A stretch of 32,000 nucleotides of DNA from an uncultured Lentisphaeria bacterium (lineage in GTDB: Bacteria; Verrucomicrobiota; Lentisphaeria; JABSQK01; JAJFLO01). The position numbers were made by a program, and so were the translations under genes. Below, piece by piece: positions 4,456 through 20,241 of this stretch (position 1 is its first letter; the number at the start of each line of letters is the position of its first letter). A model generated the notes under the pieces. It ran no database searches and was not told the DNA's origin. It saw only the letters and a list, made by a program, of their open reading frames with translations. Location: NCBI GenBank assembly GCA_951812855.1, contig OX638337.1:90001-122000 (forward strand). The letters are read 5' to 3'.

Positions 4456-6663
4456 ATGAATAATATTTATCGTTCTATACAATCATCTTTCAAATGGTTA
4501 TGTGTTGGGTTTGTATTCCTTAACAGTCTAAATCATTTATGTGCCCAGCCAATTTCATCTGCAGAATTACCAACACTTGCCCCCACGAATTTAGACATGT
4601 ATATCACCAGGGTAACGGTTCGCCTGATGCTAAAACAGCATTATATGAATAAGAAGCTTGATGACAAATTTTCAGAAATGCTCTTTAAAGAGTATTTTGA
4701 ACGGCTTGATCCGAATCATTATTATTTTTTGCAGGAGGATCTGGACAATTATATTAAGAATAAAACCTTGCTGGATGATTACTTAGCCATAGGAAATTTG
4801 GAATTCGCCTTTAGCGTTTACAACCTGTACTTAAAACGAATTAGAGATCGCGTGGAGTTTGTTAAGAAAGCCGTTAATGAGTCGTTTGATTTCGATACGG
4901 ATGAAAAAATTATTATCGATCGAACCGAATTGCCCTGGGCAGAAGATGTCGGGGAATTAAATGATATTTGGCGAAAGCGGATAAAAAATCATTTACTTGT
5001 AAATAAATTCCTGATTGATTCAAAAGAAGATAAGGGCGAAGAGAAAAATAACTTTGAGACGAAGCCGCTTACTTCTGAAGAAAGGGTCGTAAAAAAGTAC
5101 ACGCAATATTATTCATACTTTTCTGAAAATGATAATGCTGATGTTATGGAATATTTTCTCTCGGCAGTACTTTATATATTTGATCCTCATTCCAGTTATT
5201 TGAACTGGCGATCTCTGGAAGACTTTAATATTGCCATGAAATTGTCACTGCAGGGGATTGGAGCCACTCTGAAATACGTTGATGGATATACAGAGGTTGT
5301 CAATTTGATTGCAGGCGGTCCGGCAGAACGGGATGGTCGATTGCAGCCCGGTGACAGGATTATTGCAGTTGCACAAGGTTCTGAATCCCCAATTGATGTT
5401 GTTGATATGCCGTTAAATAAAGTCGTCAGAAAAATTCGTGGAACAAAAGATACAGAAGTGCGCCTCACGGTAATAAAATCACTTCATGGAGCACCATCAG
5501 TTATAAATTTAATTCGTGACAAAGTAAAGTTAAAGGATCAGGAAGCAAAAGGCCGAGTTGAAAAATTTAAGGTTGATAACAAACTCACACTGAATTTAGG
5601 TGTGATTGATATCCCGTCGTTTTACGCTGACTTCGAAGGGCTTAAAAACAGGAAAAAAGATGCAAAAAGTACATCCTCAGATGTTAAGAAAATTATCGAT
5701 GGCATGATTAAAAATGACAATATTGACGGTGTGCTAATCGATTTACGTTCAAATGGCGGCGGCAGTTTAGAGGAAGCAATCAATCTGACAGGCTTATTTA
5801 TCCCTGAAGGCCCCGTGGTTCAAGTCCGAAGTCGTCAGGGTGTCAAGGTGCGCGGAGACAATGATGACGGTTTTTCATATGATTTGCCTTTGGTTGTTTT
5901 AGTCAATAAATCCAGTGCATCTGCCTCTGAGATTTTTTCCGGAGCAATCCAGGATTATGATCGCGGCATTGTGGTCGGCGATATAAATACCCATGGGAAA
6001 GGAACAGTCCAGACTATACTGAAATTAAACCGGATAAAGATGTTAAAAGATAAAAAATCTGGGGCAATGAAATATACAATGGCAAAATTTTACCGGGTAA
6101 CCGGTGCGTCGACTCAGAAAAAAGGCGTGACGCCATCCATAATATTCCCATCGTTTTTAGATCATATGGAAATAGGAGAATCCCACCTTAAACATGTGAT
6201 GCCCTGGGATGAAATAAAACCATTACCCGTAGAAAAGGAAATTAATATTTCGAATTATATCGATAGAATAAAGAAAAATGCGACAACACGTTTAGAAAAA
6301 AATAAAAAATTTCAAGAGTTACGAAACGATATTGAGAAATACGGCATTAGGAAAAAAGAAAAATCAATTTCTCTCAATAAGGACAAACGACTGGCGATGA
6401 AAAAAGAAGACGAATATTGGGCTGAACGAAGCAAATCAATATTAGGTAAAAGGAATAAGGATAAAAAGGGCAAAAAAAATAAAAATAAAGATAAGACTGA
6501 CAAGACAGATATATATTTAAAGCAGACCTTATTTATTCTTGCAGATTTAATCGAAGCCAGGGAAAATAAAGGTTCCATTACAGCCGTATCAAGTTCGAAA
6601 ACTCCATTAAATAATAATACGTTGAATTCAAATGTTGATACTGTAAATAAAGGCACCTATTGA
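4456..6663 (+). CDS. prc: Tail-specific / carboxy-terminal processing protease (peptidase S41) with a PDZ domain and a Lys-rich tail
   Basis: 735 aa with an N-terminal signal-like hydrophobic segment. PDZ-like segment: LQGIGATL...GGPAERDGRLQPGDRIIAV. S41 catalytic region: DLRSNGGGSLEEA, LVNKSSASASEIFSGAIQDY, HGKGTVQT. AAGGA lies 7 nt upstream of the ATG. Confidence 0.9.
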   Translation: MNNIYRSIQSSFKWLCVGFVFLNSLNHLCAQPISSAELPTLAPTNLDMYITRVTVRLMLKQHYMNKKLDDKFSEMLFKEYFERLDPNHYYFLQEDLDNYIKNKTLLDDYLAIGNLEFAFSVYNLYLKRIRDRVEFVKKAVNESFDFDTDEKIIIDRTELPWAEDVGELNDIWRKRIKNHLLVNKFLIDSKEDKGEEKNNFETKPLTSEERVVKKYTQYYSYFSENDNADVMEYFLSAVLYIFDPHSSYLNWRSLEDFNIAMKLSLQGIGATLKYVDGYTEVVNLIAGGPAERDGRLQPGDRIIAVAQGSESPIDVVDMPLNKVVRKIRGTKDTEVRLTVIKSLHGAPSVINLIRDKVKLKDQEAKGRVEKFKVDNKLTLNLGVIDIPSFYADFEGLKNRKKDAKSTSSDVKKIIDGMIKNDNIDGVLIDLRSNGGGSLEEAINLTGLFIPEGPVVQVRSRQGVKVRGDNDDGFSYDLPLVVLVNKSSASASEIFSGAIQDYDRGIVVGDINTHGKGTVQTILKLNRIKMLKDKKSGAMKYTMAKFYRVTGASTQKKGVTPSIIFPSFLDHMEIGESHLKHVMPWDEIKPLPVEKEINISNYIDRIKKNATTRLEKNKKFQELRNDIEKYGIRKKEKSISLNKDKRLAMKKEDEYWAERSKSILGKRNKDKKGKKNKNKDKTDKTDIYLKQTLFILADLIEARENKGSITAVSSSKTPLNNNTLNSNVDTVNKGTY

Positions 6664-7144: not shown

Positions 7145-8245
7145 TCAAGACGAGACCCATTCACTAATCAGAAAAAATAAAAGTAAAATATGGCAAATGA
7201 ATACGATAAACGGTTGGTTTTCAATTTTCCGAACATTGGGATACTCCAAACTACCCGGACTGCCGATTATAAAATATAAAAAAACTCCCCCAATCAAACT
7301 CCATAACGCGATGACTGTCGAAAAGAAATCGGGTATAATACCGGATTTTTCCTTTATCGCCCCCCTTCAATCAGGAAAAGAAACAGGACAATATCGCCAC
7401 TCCCAAAACCGCCTGGAATCCCTGGAACTGCTGTGATTGTATTTGCCGTTTGGGGTGATAAACAATAATGCTTCAAACTTATTTTATTTTCATGAAACCC
7501 TTTACCAACGCCGTATACACATAAGGGCAGTGAAAGATGAACAGCTGCCGATCACAGAAGCGCATAAAACACAACACCAATATTATTTTTGTACAAGTCA
7601 AGAGCAGAAACGAGTTTAAGTATAATTTTATCGACCTTTTCAGGTAAAATTTTCTTTAAGAACATCGTGATTCTGTTAAATATTCCAATATGCTGCAGCT
7701 TTTTTCGATAATAAATGATAAAAAAAACCGATAATACCAGCAAAACTTCCACTTCCGATCAGGTAAAAACTAAATCGAATTTGGGGTGAGATGCTGTTTA
7801 AAAAGTCTAACGAAAATAAAATTGCCACGAAAACGACGAGGAATAATCCGAACAACCCGATAATCCGGTCAAGCATAACAGTCAATACCGCCTCGGTTGT
7901 TTTTCCAGAACTGTGTGACGATATATAGTACATTTTACATAGGTCTTCACCGACGGTTCCAGGGATGACCAAATTAAAAAATATTCCAATCATATTCAGG
8001 CGTAATAACGTAAAAAAATTTAGTTTTATACCCTGTACATCTAAAAGAAGCTTCCAGCGAAAAATGCCAAGCACAAGTACTACTCCGCCACAGCCTAAAA
8101 ATACGAAAAAAAGATACTCCTTTTGACAATCCCTGAATTCTGTATCAATATCAACACCACTGTAATTCAAAATTGAATTGATTAAGAACACGGCAAGCCC
8201 AATCCCAATAACAGCTCGAATTGATGTTTTTATTGAATTTTTCAT
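7145..8245 (-). pseudogene. Flippase-like / lysylphosphatidylglycerol-synthase-TM-region family (UPF0104-type) membrane protein, disrupted by two frameshifts and an in-frame stop
   Basis: ORF 8245-7676 carries the family N-terminus (FRWKLLLDVQGIKLNFFTLLRLNMIGIFFNLVIPGTVGEDLCKMYY). Its continuation (IIYYRKKL...KILPEKVDKIILKLVSALDLYKNNIGVVFYALL) is in another frame; the switch is at the A8/T8 run at 7720-7727. A TGA at 7552-7554 is followed in the same frame by family-like sequence (...TITAVPGIPGGFGSGDIVLFLF). A further frame change at the C6/G6 run at 7360-7365 is needed to reach the hydrophobic C-terminus (stop at 7145-7147). The combined length of ~366 codons fits the family. Confidence 0.6.
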
Positions 8246-8538
8246 TTTATATCAAATTATTCTTAATAATTGTATCTGCGTCATTGCATTTTCTAACTAA
8301 ATTTAAGATAGACTTACGCATTCAGAAAAGCTCCTGGACTTCCCAGTATTTCAAATTCGATACGATAATATTTTTAAAATGGCAGGGTTACATAAAAAAA
8401 ATTGTAACAATATTAAAAACCGTTGTTGAATATCCATTCGACGAGCGTATCATTAGAATCTATTGAGAGGGCGGGTTTCGAAAATCAATCATCTATTATT
8501 AAATTTCAACTGTTTCCCACTTAATCGGGAGGGTGCGA

Positions 8539-9756
8539 ATGTATCAAAGCAATGATCCGATGAAAGCCTATATGCAGGAAATTGGGGTAATTCCATTAAT
8601 TAGTAAAAATGAGGAAATTGAACTGGCTCGCAGAATCAAGCTCGGAGACAATAAAGCAAACCAAAAGTTAATAAAGGCAAATTTACGTTTGGTCGTAAAA
8701 ATTGCACATGACTTTAAAGGACTCGGATTACCTTTATTAGATTTGATTTCAGAAGGAAATATAGGGTTAATGCGTGCTGCAGAAAAATTTGATCCTGCCA
8801 GAGGTGCAAAATTCAGCAGTTACTCAGCATGGTGGATTAAACAGGGGATGCGTCGAGCATTATCACAAAAAAGCAGAACCATAAGGGTTCCCGTCGCATC
8901 AGCCGGGAAAATAAATAAAATACGTGCTGCTAAAATACAGCTCACCGATAAATTTGGCCGTATGCCTACCGACAGTGAAATAGCGGACTGTCTGGATTTA
9001 ACAAAACGTACTGTCCAGGGATTAAAATTAGCGGATTTAAAAACGTTTTCGATGCACGACCCAATCAAAAAAGGTGAAGAAGGCAGTTTTGAAGACATTA
9101 TTCCTGATGCATCTTCAGCAACCCCTGACGATATTATAAAAGATTCAGAGATTTTTCAACGGTTAAAAGGATTAATCCATCGTCTTGAAAAAAGAGAACA
9201 AGTTATTTTAATAATGCGTTACGGGTTGGACGGTAACCGACCTAAAACACTGGAAAGAGTCAGTTTTATTATTGGAAGAACGCGTGAACGAGTCAGACAA
9301 ATTCAGATGCAATCGCTGAAAAAGTTAAAAGCACTGATCGAAGATGAAAATATTGATAATCAAGGTAATTTTCGACAGGTTTCATCTTTTTCCGGCGAAA
9401 ATGGATCTAAAACTAAACATAGTCAAATCGAAAAAAGGAACCTCTTGAGTAAAGCGAAGAGTTTTAGAAAATTAAATCGCCTTACAATGAGGTCACTGCC
9501 AATAATTGAGTCATGTTTCAGTTCGGGTATTAACGAAAAAGACAAACAGGAATTTCTTCAGTCAAATGACGTGCCGATTACCGTACTGAACATTTCCCGA
9601 AGAAGTATTAATGGACTAAATTCAGTTCAAATTAAAACCGTATCACAACTGGCATTACAATCAATTGACGATCTAATGGATATCCGTTATTTTGGTAACA
9701 AGTGTTTGAATGAAGTACAGGACGCTTTAAGAAAATACGTTTATGCAGATGCCTGA
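8539..9756 (+). CDS. RpoD-family sigma-70 factor fused to a C-terminal RNA polymerase alpha-CTD-like helix-hairpin-helix domain
   Basis: Sigma regions: 1.2/2 (YMQEIGVIPLISKNEEIELARRI, LIKANLRLVVKIAHDF, DLISEGNIGLMRAAEKFDPARGAKFSSYSAWWIKQ), 3 (KINKIRAAKIQLTDKFGRMPTDSEIA) and 4 (REQVILIMRYGL...TLERVSFIIGRTRERVRQIQMQSLKKLK). After a ~70-aa linker, the last ~60 aa read ITVLNISRRSINGLNSVQIKTVSQLALQSIDDLMDIRYFGNKCLNEVQDAL. I moved the start to ATG 8539 (GGAGG at 8528-8532, 6-nt spacer) instead of the GTG at 8533. Confidence 0.85.
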   Translation: MYQSNDPMKAYMQEIGVIPLISKNEEIELARRIKLGDNKANQKLIKANLRLVVKIAHDFKGLGLPLLDLISEGNIGLMRAAEKFDPARGAKFSSYSAWWIKQGMRRALSQKSRTIRVPVASAGKINKIRAAKIQLTDKFGRMPTDSEIADCLDLTKRTVQGLKLADLKTFSMHDPIKKGEEGSFEDIIPDASSATPDDIIKDSEIFQRLKGLIHRLEKREQVILIMRYGLDGNRPKTLERVSFIIGRTRERVRQIQMQSLKKLKALIEDENIDNQGNFRQVSSFSGENGSKTKHSQIEKRNLLSKAKSFRKLNRLTMRSLPIIESCFSSGINEKDKQEFLQSNDVPITVLNISRRSINGLNSVQIKTVSQLALQSIDDLMDIRYFGNKCLNEVQDALRKYVYADA

Positions 9757-10685
9757 TTAATTCTATTATTAATCAGCGTAAGCAGTCCATACAAACAGGT
9801 AATATTTGTTACCTCAATAGAATGTTTTCGGGCAATCAATATTGCATTTCCTAAAATTACCTCTATCTCCATTTCTTTTCCTGTTTCGCAGTCAAGCAGC
9901 ATACTGGTCCGATACGGTTTCATTTTTCGCGTGTCGTTGATGTGTTTATGTAAGATTGACACATCAATTTTATGGCCGGAGGCTGCTGCAACTGTTTGAA
10001 TTTCCTGCATAATCTTAAATACTAATTCAGCCGTATTCTCGTTCTCAAGTATCATTTTAGTATCTGCACGCGTCAGAACTGAAATGGTATTAAAAGACGC
10101 ATTCCACAACAGTTTTTTCCATCGCTCTCTGATAATATCCTTAGAAATCGTACACGTGACTCCCGAAGTGTTTAAAATTTCAGCTAAAAATTTAACACTG
10201 TCAGATTCACCCTTCGGATATAATCCTAACGCAAGTCGGCCATAGTCCTGATGATGAATTTGACCCGGTTTTATTCGGGATACGCATATAAAGGCCAGCC
10301 CGCTAATTAAGTCATTGTTCGGGAAATTTTCTTGAATAGCAGTCTCAATTTCAATGCCATTTTGAATCAGTACGATCGCAGTTGATGACGAGATAACGGG
10401 CCGGATCAGTGCTGGAATGTCTATTTCAGGAAGTGCTTTTAAGGTAACGATAACGTAATCAGGACATCCTTTGTACTCTGTTATATCCTTTATTACCTCG
10501 ACAGGTCTATAGTGAAAATCCCCCCAGCTGCTTTTGACCTTGATGCCTTTAGATTTTACGATTTCATAATCAGAACGGCATAATGTTGAAACATGATAAC
10601 CAGCCCGGGCCAATTTACCCCCATAAAATCCACCAACCGCCCCAGTACCTATGATTAAAATTTTTGGTCGTTTAGATGTCGGCAT
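9741..10685 (-). CDS. panE: 2-dehydropantoate 2-reductase (ketopantoate reductase, ApbA/PanE family)
   Basis: N-terminal Rossmann motif KILIIGTGAVGGFYGGKLARAGYHV, with length and overall pattern typical of PanE/ApbA. I moved the start to Met33 of the listed ORF (ATG 10685), because the upstream extension runs deep into argH. The start still overlaps the argH stop by 14 nt. Confidence 0.7.
   Translation of the reverse strand: MPTSKRPKILIIGTGAVGGFYGGKLARAGYHVSTLCRSDYEIVKSKGIKVKSSWGDFHYRPVEVIKDITEYKGCPDYVIVTLKALPEIDIPALIRPVISSSTAIVLIQNGIEIETAIQENFPNNDLISGLAFICVSRIKPGQIHHQDYGRLALGLYPKGESDSVKFLAEILNTSGVTCTISKDIIRERWKKLLWNASFNTISVLTRADTKMILENENTAELVFKIMQEIQTVAAASGHKIDVSILHKHINDTRKMKPYRTSMLLDCETGKEMEIEVILGNAILIARKHSIEVTNITCLYGLLTLINNRINQASA
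9753..9776. other. 9-bp perfect inverted repeat (CTGATTAAT-n6-ATTAATCAG) at the convergent overlap of the sigma gene and the panE-like gene
   Basis: Arms at 9753-9761 and 9768-9776 are exact reverse complements. The left arm contains the sigma stop codon (9754-9756). The whole element lies inside the 3' coding end of the minus-strand gene. Confidence 0.3.
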
Positions 10686-12259: not shown

Positions 12260-13372
12260 ATGAAACTAATTTATTATCTATTGTTTACCGGATTGATTTT
12301 AATCGGCTGCTCAAAAAACAGAGAGGTCATCACAATTACAGAATCACGAGACGCCAATGAAAATGCTGAGTTATTTGTGTCAGCAAGATCAAGTTCTGAA
12401 CGATTCGCCAGTAATTTTGGAAACGACAATCACACTGGCCATGATCATGATCACAGTGGCAATCCGTTTGACTGGGCTCTGCCTGAAGGGTGGCACGAGA
12501 AGCCGGAGACACAGATGCGTTTGATTAATTTAGGCATTGGTTCCAATTTTGATGCAGAATGTTATGTAAGTGTGCTTCAGGGTGCTGGCGGTGGATTGGC
12601 TGCAAATATAAACCGATGGCGTTCACAAATGTTACTTGAACCACTGTCAAATGAGGATATCGCCGGACTGCCTAAGAAAACGCTGCTGGGACAGGACGCT
12701 GTATTTACCAAATTTTCAGGTGCATTCAGGGGAATGGGTGACGACGACTATAAACAGGATTATATGCTTGTCGGACTGATCTTAGAACATAAAGGAATTT
12801 CTATATTTATCAAAATGATTGGTCCTCAAACCGTCTTAGAACACGAATTAGACAACTTCGAGGTATTTTCAAAGTCTCTTAAGCTCAAGGATGTTTCTCA
12901 CAATAACAGCAAACCAAATACACGCTCAGAAATCAAAAAATCCATAGAGTTCACCTGGCAGGTTCCAGGTCATTGGATTGAGCAGGTCGAACAAAAAATG
13001 AGAATGGCAACCTATAAAATCGGACCCGTTCCGAACGCTGAATGCTATGTTGTCATGCTGCCGGGAGATGCCGGAGGAGTTTCCGCGAATATAAATCGTT
13101 GGTTCAAACAAATGGGACATACGATTAATTCAACTCAATTACATGATCATGTCCGGGAAATTGAAATATTGAAATCAGAGGCGAAGCTTGTAGAAATACG
13201 AGGTGACTATACCGATATGTCTGGAGAACATTTTAATGATTTTATGATGATTGGTGTCATTTTCAGTTTTAAAAATTCAATGATATTTATCAAAATGACC
13301 GGGCCGGAATCTATAATTAAAAAAGAACGTCAGAATTTTCTGACATTCTGTAACTCATTTGACGTATTATAA
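12260..13372 (+). CDS. Predicted lipoprotein of unknown function with a His/Asp-rich segment and two tandem copies of a ~140-aa domain
   Basis: Signal peptide plus lipobox (LILIGC, Cys17). HTGHDHDHSG at residues 58-67 (nt 12431-12460). The two repeats are offset by 161 residues and share W..P..W, MR, AECYV, AGG..ANINRW, IFIKM.GP and NF (approx. nt 12467-12883 and 12950-13369). It ends 11 nt upstream of ccsB. Confidence 0.7.
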   Translation: MKLIYYLLFTGLILIGCSKNREVITITESRDANENAELFVSARSSSERFASNFGNDNHTGHDHDHSGNPFDWALPEGWHEKPETQMRLINLGIGSNFDAECYVSVLQGAGGGLAANINRWRSQMLLEPLSNEDIAGLPKKTLLGQDAVFTKFSGAFRGMGDDDYKQDYMLVGLILEHKGISIFIKMIGPQTVLEHELDNFEVFSKSLKLKDVSHNNSKPNTRSEIKKSIEFTWQVPGHWIEQVEQKMRMATYKIGPVPNAECYVVMLPGDAGGVSANINRWFKQMGHTINSTQLHDHVREIEILKSEAKLVEIRGDYTDMSGEHFNDFMMIGVIFSFKNSMIFIKMTGPESIIKKERQNFLTFCNSFDVL

Positions 13373-19278: not shown

Positions 19279-20241
19279 ATGTATCAACGAAGAATAAAAC
19301 TTAAAGCTAAACAAAAATCATTCTATTTAATTACAAATCGTATTACAGGAGGCAGTTTCATTTTCGGTGATGCTGAAAAGGAATATTTCAGAAAATTACT
19401 TTTCGATGGCCAAAAACGGTTCGCATATACTGTCTGGGATTATGTCATTATGGATAATCATTATCACGCATTAATCGAAATTCCTGAATCCTCAGAAATG
19501 AGTCGGCAAGAATTATTAGTTCGATGGCAAAAGTATTATCGATTGAAACCGTCTATTAATCAGGGTGATGATGATTTGGAGGTATTTCGAAATAAGATCC
19601 ATGACATTAGTCTTGTGGTTGGCAATTTCCAGCAACGATTTACACAATGGTTTAATAAGCGAAACAATCGCTGGGGAAAACTTTTCGGAGGTCGATTTGA
19701 CAGTGTTATCGTCGATGCAAATTGTGCAATCGCCAAGATGATGGCTTATATTACACTGAACCCAGTACGAGCAGGTATAGCGATTGAACCTGCAGGTTAT
19801 AAATGGAGCGGGTATGCTGAACGCATGGCATTGGGGAAGTTGCAAAAGAACGATCGGGAAATCGTTTCTTATTTGGTTAGGGAACTTGGGCTCCCTGAAG
19901 ATTTTCTTGTAGGAAAGGATAAGCGGGTTCTTAATCGAATTTGGGATCGTTTTAGAGATTATCTTCTAGGCCATTCTTCTAAAAACCGTGAGGCTGACAT
20001 GGCCACTATAGGCGAATTGTTAGAGCTCGCTGATATGCCATTAAAGCTCGAATGGCCCAATAGAATGATGCTCCGGGTTAGATTTGCCACCAAAGGTGTT
20101 GCAATTGGCTCTAAATCATTTGTTGCTGATGTTCTTAAAAATCAAAAGGAAATCCTGGGTTATCGGCGAGATCACCATCCAGTAAATCCTCGAGCCTGGG
20201 ATGAAATTTATTGCTTAAAAAAGCATCGAACATGGGTCTGA
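19279..20241 (+). CDS. IS200/IS605-type Y1 (HUH) transposase homologue, RAYT-like long form
   Basis: HUH motif in MDNHYHALIE. Family-typical FQQRFTQWFNKR..RWGKLFGGRFDS and the Tyr-helix segment MMAYITLNPVRAGI. GAGGGG lies upstream of the ATG. I could find no terminal hairpins or inverted repeats, and only 29 nt separate its stop from the mutL stop. Confidence 0.75.
   Translation: MYQRRIKLKAKQKSFYLITNRITGGSFIFGDAEKEYFRKLLFDGQKRFAYTVWDYVIMDNHYHALIEIPESSEMSRQELLVRWQKYYRLKPSINQGDDDLEVFRNKIHDISLVVGNFQQRFTQWFNKRNNRWGKLFGGRFDSVIVDANCAIAKMMAYITLNPVRAGIAIEPAGYKWSGYAERMALGKLQKNDREIVSYLVRELGLPEDFLVGKDKRVLNRIWDRFRDYLLGHSSKNREADMATIGELLELADMPLKLEWPNRMMLRVRFATKGVAIGSKSFVADVLKNQKEILGYRRDHHPVNPRAWDEIYCLKKHRTWV

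Follow-up and report, generated by a model that had tools for sequence, protein, structure and literature searches.

What does a sigma factor gain by carrying, at its own C-terminus, the domain with which the alpha subunit of RNA polymerase reads upstream promoter DNA? The question is raised by a gene in a 32,000-nt stretch of DNA from an uncultured Lentisphaeria bacterium (assembly GCA_951812855.1, contig OX638337.1, positions 90,001 to 122,000), which we refer to throughout as the window. Transcription activators act mainly on two targets, the alpha subunit C-terminal domain (alpha-CTD) and sigma region 4, which meet on promoter DNA immediately upstream of the -35 element and, to our knowledge, reside on separate polypeptides in every bacterium that has been studied. 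A preliminary description of the window had read this gene as a complete RpoD-type sigma followed by a flexible linker of about 70 residues and an alpha-CTD, and had supposed that the tail provides the sigma with its own module for contacting upstream DNA or activators. We find that the protein does have the structure sigma, linker, alpha-CTD. As an explanation of the whole we somewhat favour the view that it is a principal-like sigma paralogue whose tethered alpha-CTD contacts DNA upstream of the -35 element.

Pfam recognises five domains in the protein. The four sigma-70 regions appear in order between residues 6 and 264, each above its gathering cut-off, and RNA_pol_A_CTD (PF03118) follows at residues 336-398 (E=3.4e-16, 59.2 bits against a gathering score of 23.8, profile positions 4-66 of 67). 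This is the set of matches that the preliminary description had anticipated. The N-terminal domains of RpoA (RNA_pol_L, RNA_pol_A_bac) have no Pfam match in the protein, which is therefore not RpoA. Because the sequence GGGAGGG lies at 8527-8533 and the homologues share a common N-terminus (in the family alignment all start MY..NDPMKAYMQ), the ATG at 8539 is the likely start codon, rather than the GTG at 8533.

The tail is a true alpha-CTD, a compact helical fold with two helix-hairpin-helix motifs, by several measures. A phmmer search of the tail against the sequences in PDB gave 28 matches with E<0.02, every one of them RpoA (best 8gzg_A, 4.4e-6), and the few non-RpoA rows had E of at least 0.05. 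A family profile made from 28 tails aligned with the E. coli alpha-CTD over 59 columns without a gap (hhalign probability 96%, E=4.9e-9). The alignment returned the same register as first proposed, in which the residue number in the fusion protein is that in E. coli plus 90, with R355 equivalent to R265, N358 to N268, G386 to G296 and K388 to K298. AlphaFold2 modelled the tail alone with confidence (predicted local distance difference test, pLDDT, 90.6; predicted template-modelling score, pTM, 0.80), and of the 50 Foldseek matches listed for this model in PDB nearly all were alpha subunits of RNA polymerase, whole or as the CTD, among them 7vpd_S (target-normalised TM-score 0.93, root-mean-square deviation, rmsd, 0.6 Å, 55 columns). 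The model superposed on the E. coli structures 1lb2, 3k4g and 3n97 with an rmsd of 0.7-1.0 Å, and overall the matches lay at 0.6-1.0 Å over 55-57 columns.

The sigma half is that of a principal-like (group 1/2-type) factor of the sigma-70 family, from an uncultured Lentisphaeria-related lineage of the Planctomycetes-Verrucomicrobia-Chlamydiae (PVC) bacteria. Compared with solved structures, principal sigmas came out on top (B. subtilis SigA, 7ckq_F, 7.6e-63), with RpoS behind them. The motifs FSSYSAWWIKQ in region 2 and GRTRERVRQIQ in region 4 are invariant in 31 aligned members; we take them to be the equivalents of the aromatic-melting motif of E. coli region 2.3/2.4 and of the region 4.2 recognition helix, and RERVRQ of the latter is retained in the alignment of the fused family. 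Pfam places the beginning of region 1.2 at residue 6 and finds no region 1.1 or N-terminal extension ahead of it. The protein misses every NCBIfam equivalog cut-off, both for RpoD (best models NF006666, 245 bits against 572, and NF004208, 242 against 555) and for RpoS (TIGR02394, 275 bits against 378.7; NF004207, 259 against 394). Nor does it belong among the extracytoplasmic function (ECF, group 4) sigmas, as regions 1.2 and 3 are present and its C-terminal extension is, by Pfam, an alpha-CTD.

An unusual joining of two familiar genes invites the suspicion that assembly or gene calling has joined a sigma gene to a fragment of rpoA, a mis-join that the preliminary description had itself raised. 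The sole cause for that suspicion here is the hypervariable linker, and we found no support for it. Seven contigs, which belong to more than one assembly and include at least one long-read contig of 1.94 Mb, carry the identical 405-residue protein, and a search of 5.8 billion protein clusters recovered 60 clusters (at 90% identity) with the same five-domain architecture and 53-73% identity, coming from ENA, JGI, NCBI and Logan. Synteny is kept at five loci, the CTD bears a signature of its own (RYFGxKC, against NFGxKS in RpoA), and there is no RpoA N-terminal domain nearby. We rejected the chimera on this evidence and regard an artefact as barely conceivable. A second search with a family profile returned the same 60 clusters and added none, and its scores fell in steps from 598 bits for the last fused member to 583 for two truncated relatives and 509 for unfused sigmas. 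The fused architecture is thus real, conserved and rare, and full-text literature searches found no description of a sigma/alpha-CTD fusion, in keeping with the earlier statement that no characterised example was known.

For the comparisons that follow we used 62 fused sequences, namely the 60 clusters and two extra cluster members. Neighbour-joining trees of the sigma domain group all 62 in one clade, sister to unfused sigmas of Lentisphaeria and Victivallales, which indicates that the fusion arose once and was then inherited vertically. The nearest of the unfused sigmas are without exception from metagenome-assembled genomes (MAGs) of Lentisphaeria or Victivallales, and the members of the family themselves are named in the sources as 'Lentisphaeria bacterium' or 'Verrucomicrobia bacterium', with a single 'Rhodothermales bacterium'. 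A split-gene precursor was considered and rejected, as no stand-alone CTD gene lies beside unfused sigma genes in any open reading frame (ORF) of the 80 GTDB loci scanned. Four sequences inside the fused clade lack the CTD. One of them, P0056, looks like a frameshifted fused gene, while P0054 and the pair P0077/P0109 are genuine short forms in other genomic contexts. Because a six-frame hidden Markov model scan downstream of P0054 and P0077 found no CTD remnant, we take these two for real CTD-less genes and not for frameshifts.

Has selection kept the tail, and if so, for what? Measured against the window protein, the fused sequences average 80% identity in the sigma domain and 51% in the CTD, and only 14% in the linker, whose length ranges from 44 to 89 residues. 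In the full-length AlphaFold2 model the sigma domains and the CTD are both confident, the CTD takes no fixed position against the sigma body (pTM 0.33), and pLDDT falls below 50 at linker residues 282-318; the model pictures folded modules on what would be a floppy tether. The flexible linker of the preliminary description, at residues of about 271-343, thus holds as a predicted disordered and hypervariable segment. That the tail is a neutral, functionless accretion in the course of being lost would accord with the CTD-less relatives inside the clade. The 28-sequence tail alignment nevertheless contains nine invariant columns (L, S, R, N, L, F, G, C, E), and because these stand beside a linker at 14% identity, strong purifying selection must be acting on the CTD alone; we find neutral accretion very improbable. 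The conservation pattern looks, rather, like what one would expect of a functional module hung on a passive tether.

The invariant residues also point to what the module may do. In E. coli the 265 determinant, the DNA-contact surface, comprises L262, R265, N268, C269, N294, G296, K298, S299 and E302, the 261 determinant touches R603 of sigma-70, and the 287 determinant contacts CAP. In the fused family the equivalents of R265, N268, G296 and E302 are present in 62 of 62 sequences and that of K298 in 61, so three of the four contacts first noted (R265, N268 and G296) are kept in every sequence and the fourth (K298) in all but one; the position of L262 is always hydrophobic, and that of C269 is S or G. 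The determinant thus retains its core, whereas its periphery, at N294 and S299 as well as C269, has changed. The equivalent of E261, by comparison, is mostly K, N or R, so the acidic 261 determinant is not kept; the 287 determinant is variable, and the segment equal to residues 315-318 is absent. Because these core residues are invariant or nearly so while the 261 and 287 surfaces vary and 315-318 is missing, selection appears to have acted on the core that contacts DNA, and not on the surfaces known to contact proteins. Of the two roles supposed earlier, that of a sigma-owned module for upstream DNA is plausible and fits this pattern, while activator docking finds no counterpart in the conserved surfaces. 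Two cysteines deserve mention as observations in their own right. The residue at the position of E. coli S299 (residue 389, nt 9703-9705) is Cys in all 62 sequences, and in many of the fused proteins another Cys stands immediately ahead of the CTD, in a motif 'ELLxC'; a redox or metal role is possible.

How might such a tail act? After region 4, the sigma would have acquired a disordered tether of 44-89 residues and the helix-hairpin-helix domain of alpha-CTD. In the holoenzyme, region 4 would sit on the -35 element with the tether leaving from its C-terminal end. We take this end to face the upstream DNA where the alpha-CTD of RpoA binds the proximal subsite of the upstream promoter (UP) element, beside sigma region 4 (PDB 3N97). 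Because the tether would exit region 4 on this upstream-facing side, the CTD would be held at high local concentration over DNA from about -40 to -60, where it would bind the minor groove through the conserved residues of the 265 determinant. The result would be an additional upstream contact owned by the sigma, independent of or added to those of the two RpoA CTDs, and, given coexistence with an rpsU-linked housekeeping sigma, it would mark out a particular set of promoters or make them stronger. The two modules are also found together elsewhere: 61 of 149 unrelated top matches to the tail profile combine alpha-CTD-like domains with a sigma-4-like helix-turn-helix (HTH), a recurrent pairing which suggests that alpha-CTD and sigma-4 modules work side by side on DNA.

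The main rival to this proposal is that the tail serves chiefly to contact proteins or to regulate, and not to read DNA, whether as an activator docking site, as an autoinhibitory substitute for region 1.1, or as a competitor for the partners of the RpoA CTD. It is not without attraction. In E. coli, class I activators and a number of other factors dock mainly on the alpha-CTD; region 1.1 is missing, with only 5 residues ahead of region 1.2; the surface has been remodelled, with an invariant Cys at S299 and aromatics at N294; and the domain is preceded by a semi-conserved additional helix (residues 333-342) and by an 'IP(I/F)(I/V)' motif. The residues that are invariant, however, are those of DNA contact (R265, N268, G296, K298 and E302), whereas the 261 and 287 surfaces are variable and residues 315-318 absent, and the low pTM of the full-length model gives no confident intramolecular docking. 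A docking or autoinhibitory role is thus less well supported by the conservation pattern than is upstream DNA contact, and we consider it unlikely.

We then asked whether the fused protein is the housekeeping sigma of its host or a paralogue. Linkage of a sigma gene to rpsU is the classical context of housekeeping rpoD, and rpsU lies 20-160 nt downstream of the unfused sister-clade sigma gene in 45 loci. It is absent at all fused loci, including the window and its flanks of 10 kb on either side. Furthermore, a fused sigma (P0051, MFT5126677.1) and an rpsU-linked unfused one (P0069, MFT5127886.1) come from one JGI sample and share a MAG name; 1,209 numbers separate the two accessions, G+C is 59% in the contig of the former and 57% in that of the latter, and their tetranucleotide compositions correlate with r 0.92. 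Because of this contrast in rpsU linkage and this co-occurrence, we think it probable that the fused sigma is a paralogue beside a conventional principal sigma. The other view is that the lineage has no housekeeping (group 1) sigma but this one, which would be orthologous to the rpsU-linked Lentisphaeria sigma; this would put three alpha-CTDs in each holoenzyme and, in an extreme version, leave the CTD of RpoA redundant or lost. Such a view gains from the high conservation of the sigma domain, at 80% mean identity in the clade and closest to principal sigmas; from the tree, where the fused clade is sister to, and not nested in, the principal-type clade of Victivallales; from the small genome (1.94 Mb); from the two fusion-bearing GTDB genomes, which contribute one locus each among the best 80; and from the finding that, among the best 120 matches of either search, contigs of 1.94, 2.76 and 8.78 Mb yield no second close sigma. 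This last point is weak evidence, drawn as it is from the best 120 protein matches and the best 600 rows of a genome scan. The ancestral linkage to rpsU is, moreover, missing at every fused locus, one MAG apparently has both kinds of sigma, all RpoD equivalog cut-offs are missed, and the CTD-less members of the clade in other genomic contexts point to duplication. A sole housekeeping role is accordingly a serious contender with the lesser chance of being right.

Several results nonetheless weigh against the combination that we favour, a paralogue with a DNA-contacting tail. The inference of paralogy comes from synteny and from one MAG, which is labelled 'Rhodothermales' and could combine more than one organism in its bin; in the window and the 10 kb on each side of it, no rpoA and no other sigma gene was found. 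Within the 265 determinant itself, N294 is replaced by Y or F in 55 of 62 sequences and S299 by the invariant Cys; both changes are specific to the family, and to judge from them the specificity, or even the ligand, may differ from that of the E. coli alpha-CTD. The linker, furthermore, is not consistently basic and so provides no independent hint of proximity to DNA: a basic linker acting as an auxiliary DNA binder was considered and rejected, the net charge having a median of -1 and being positive in only 20 of 62. That P0054, P0077 and P0109 lack the CTD means that it is dispensable in some contexts. Promoter-like matches upstream of the gene, finally, numbered 10 against 6.5 +/- 2.5 in shuffled sequence, which is not above expectation.

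The same held for the promoter and terminator scan around the fusion gene as a whole, whose counts did not exceed shuffled expectation, so that we claim no promoter there, and an Rfam scan of the window found no family at threshold. Read by eye, the region upstream of the fused gene in two GC-rich relatives contains TTGACA-N17/18-TATGTT (L004, about 5300-5345; L087, about 4895-4940), with A- or T-rich tracts farther upstream, and a run of eight A residues (A8) can likewise be seen upstream in L004 and L084. A constant spacing between the A8 run and a -35-like element was looked for over five fused loci and was not upheld, since the spacing in the window differs; we treat it as an anecdote.

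Coordinates of the gene, of the parts of its product and of its immediate neighbours are collected in Table 1.

Table 1. The fusion gene, its domains and its neighbours (positions in the window; residues of the fusion protein in brackets)
Feature	Position	Strand	Remarks
Sigma-70/alpha-CTD fusion gene	8539..9756	+	One ORF without interruption, 405 aa + stop, five Pfam domains
Shine-Dalgarno-like GGGAGGG	8527..8533	+	5 nt before ATG 8539, read directly in the sequence
Sigma region 1.2	8554..8649 (aa 6-37)	+	Pfam Sigma70_r1_2 PF00140, E=1.9e-11
Sigma region 2, core binding and -10 recognition	8668..8880 (aa 44-114)	+	Pfam PF04542, E=2.2e-18
Sigma region 3	8908..9132 (aa 124-198)	+	Pfam PF04539, E=3.9e-13
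Sigma region 4, -35 recognition HTH	9175..9330 (aa 213-264)	+	Pfam PF04545, E=2.5e-11
Flexible linker	9349..9567 (aa 271-343)	+	Conserved (I/L)EDExxDNxG motif at start, rest hypervariable
Additional helix before the canonical alpha-CTD	9535..9564 (aa 333-342)	+	AlphaFold2 tail model residues 14-23; semi-conserved 'EELLxC' column
Alpha-CTD proper, equal to E. coli RpoA 254-312	9568..9744 (aa 344-402)	+	Pfam, hhalign, Foldseek, residue census; includes R355, N358, G386, K388, C389, E392
LPG_synthase_TM-family membrane protein gene	7268..8245	-	Divergent from the sigma gene; interrupted by frameshifts
panE (ketopantoate reductase)	9741..10685	-	Convergent; overlaps last 16 nt of the sigma gene; Pfam ApbA + ApbA_C

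The neighbourhood of the gene is an ordinary chromosomal one. The window has 38% G+C and contains folB, folK, pyrD, panE, argH, hemA, mutL, pgi, trpS and fumC, together with genes for a rhomboid protease, a Tsp protease and cytochrome c maturation. A divergent LPG_synthase_TM gene lies upstream of the fused sigma in all five of the fused loci examined. In the window its coverage by a 328-residue homologue requires frames -2/-3/-2 (tblastn), and the region differs from the sister contig ptg000035c by five indels; this copy is either a decaying pseudogene or the product of long-read indel errors. Downstream, panE-argH follows the fused sigma at three of the five loci. Gene calls place panE in L001 and L084, and the same neighbour is seen in L003 and L084. 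The overlap between panE and the 3' end of the sigma gene spans 9741-9756 in the window and amounts to 30 nt in L084 (7243-7272), and because of this convergent overlap there is no intergenic room for a terminator. Elsewhere in the window, a 320-residue ORF at 19279-20241 (+) has a weak match to an IS200-like Y1 transposase (E=6.5e-5, below the gathering score), and the copy in L086 is listed with no Pfam family; the product may be a relative of the tyrosine transposases, either domesticated or associated with repetitive extragenic palindromic (REP) sequences. A 370-residue ORF without a Pfam match (12260-13372, +) immediately precedes the ResB/CcsA genes for cytochrome c maturation.

The domains of this protein are textbook ones. 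What is new is their combination, which is rare, restricted to a lineage and, in the full-text literature, without a description that we could find; it is not a new principle. Its significance is that evolution has joined covalently two modules that, in the bacteria studied, meet on the promoter as separate chains, and has kept them joined across a deep clade. Another way to view the fusion is as a natural experiment on how much of promoter strength and selectivity is due to that contact. If the tail binds DNA, then promoter recognition by the fused sigma would extend beyond the -35 and -10 elements in a manner specific to this sigma; promoters in these uncultured marine and aquatic PVC bacteria would then have to be predicted differently, and synthetic sigma factors that recognise UP elements by themselves could be designed on the same compact plan. 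In its boldest form the idea would be one of sigma-borne upstream reading, in which a third, sigma-tethered alpha-CTD defines a promoter class of its own (-35/-10 plus an upstream tract), the fused protein being possibly the only principal sigma; this we hold to be doubtful. Were it true, the RpoA CTD could be partly redundant in the 1.94-Mb genome, with the fused sigma even as sole principal sigma.

It remains to place the fusion among known systems. The closest in its parts is the alpha-CTD of RpoA itself (E. coli RpoA 249-329; PDB 1LB2, 3K4G, 3N97), to which the tail is alike in family (PF03118), in fold (0.7-1.0 Å, with a gapless alignment), in sharing R265, N268, G296, K298 and E302, and in hanging on a flexible linker. 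In the fusion, however, the domain follows sigma region 4 at its C-terminal end and not the alpha dimerisation domain, it is present in one copy per holoenzyme and only when the fused sigma is bound, and it departs from the E. coli domain in N294 (Y/F), S299 (Cys), the unconserved 261 and 287 determinants and the missing residues from about 313 to 329. Some RpoA proteins reach more CTDs per polymerase by another way, through tandem CTDs on RpoA: P0236 (399 residues) has RNA_pol_L and RNA_pol_A_bac followed by two tandem CTDs, and P0133, a cyanobacterial-looking fragment of 326 residues, has three.

The closest in sequence are the rpsU-linked sigmas of Lentisphaeria and Victivallales (P0065, 289 residues; P0093, 705 residues; L005-L082), which form the sister clade, share the layout of regions 1.2 to 4 and are 55-69% identical in the sigma domain. 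These differ in ending 6-25 residues after region 4, with no CTD anywhere in the locus. Many of the sister-clade sigmas in L005-L082 have an N-terminal extension of 100-680 residues (upper bounds, being based on ORFs), and that of P0093, rich in Lys, Ser, Ala and Pro, may be another way of adding DNA contacts. Several genomes of Lentisphaeraceae or Lentisphaeria also contain two tandem principal-like sigma genes of about 290-330 residues (L039, L044, L061 and L066), and in L062 and L067 two such genes of the same size lie close together on the same strand.

The alpha-CTD-like domain is a promiscuous module. At E<=1e-3 the tail profile picks out 20,593 representative proteins, of which the best-scoring carry 2-12 tandem alpha-CTD-like repeats. 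Like the fusion, tandem-repeat proteins such as P0123, P0147 and P0159 hold the same two DNA-binding modules in one polypeptide, but they have multiple repeats and often long remainders that are unannotated or contain a helicase; in the set P0123-P0271 (also P0183) some have helicase (ResIII/Helicase_C) or HARE-HTH domains. Neither region 2 nor region 3 was found in the 10 that were scanned singly or in the listed part of a 63-member Pfam census, and these proteins are probably not sigma factors. They went unmentioned in the literature found for the sigma/alpha-CTD fusion, in searches that were aimed at the fusion only. A module so widespread, in tandem arrays and beside sigma-4-like HTH domains, is worth describing on its own.

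The exchange of such modules has a laboratory counterpart in the alpha/sigma-region-4 chimeras reportedly engineered in E. coli by the Hochschild laboratory, in which sigma region 4 was placed on the alpha linker, so that a promoter-DNA-binding module was moved between alpha and sigma. These constructs were reportedly tolerated mechanically by RNA polymerase; unlike the fusion they are artificial, and reciprocal to it. In nature, additional domains after region 4 are known from other proteins of the sigma-70 family. The fused C-terminal SnoaL_2 domain of M. tuberculosis sigma-J is described as modulating promoter recognition (PMC5766207), and the ECF41/42 groups are likewise given as ECF sigmas with fused C-terminal domains (PMC7826278). 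Such ECF sigmas belong to group 4 and lack regions 1.2 and 3, and the domains that they carry have sensor or regulatory folds, in contrast to the polymerase-derived DNA-binding domain of the fusion. With different sigma groups and different domains, they are nonetheless its closest functional precedents.

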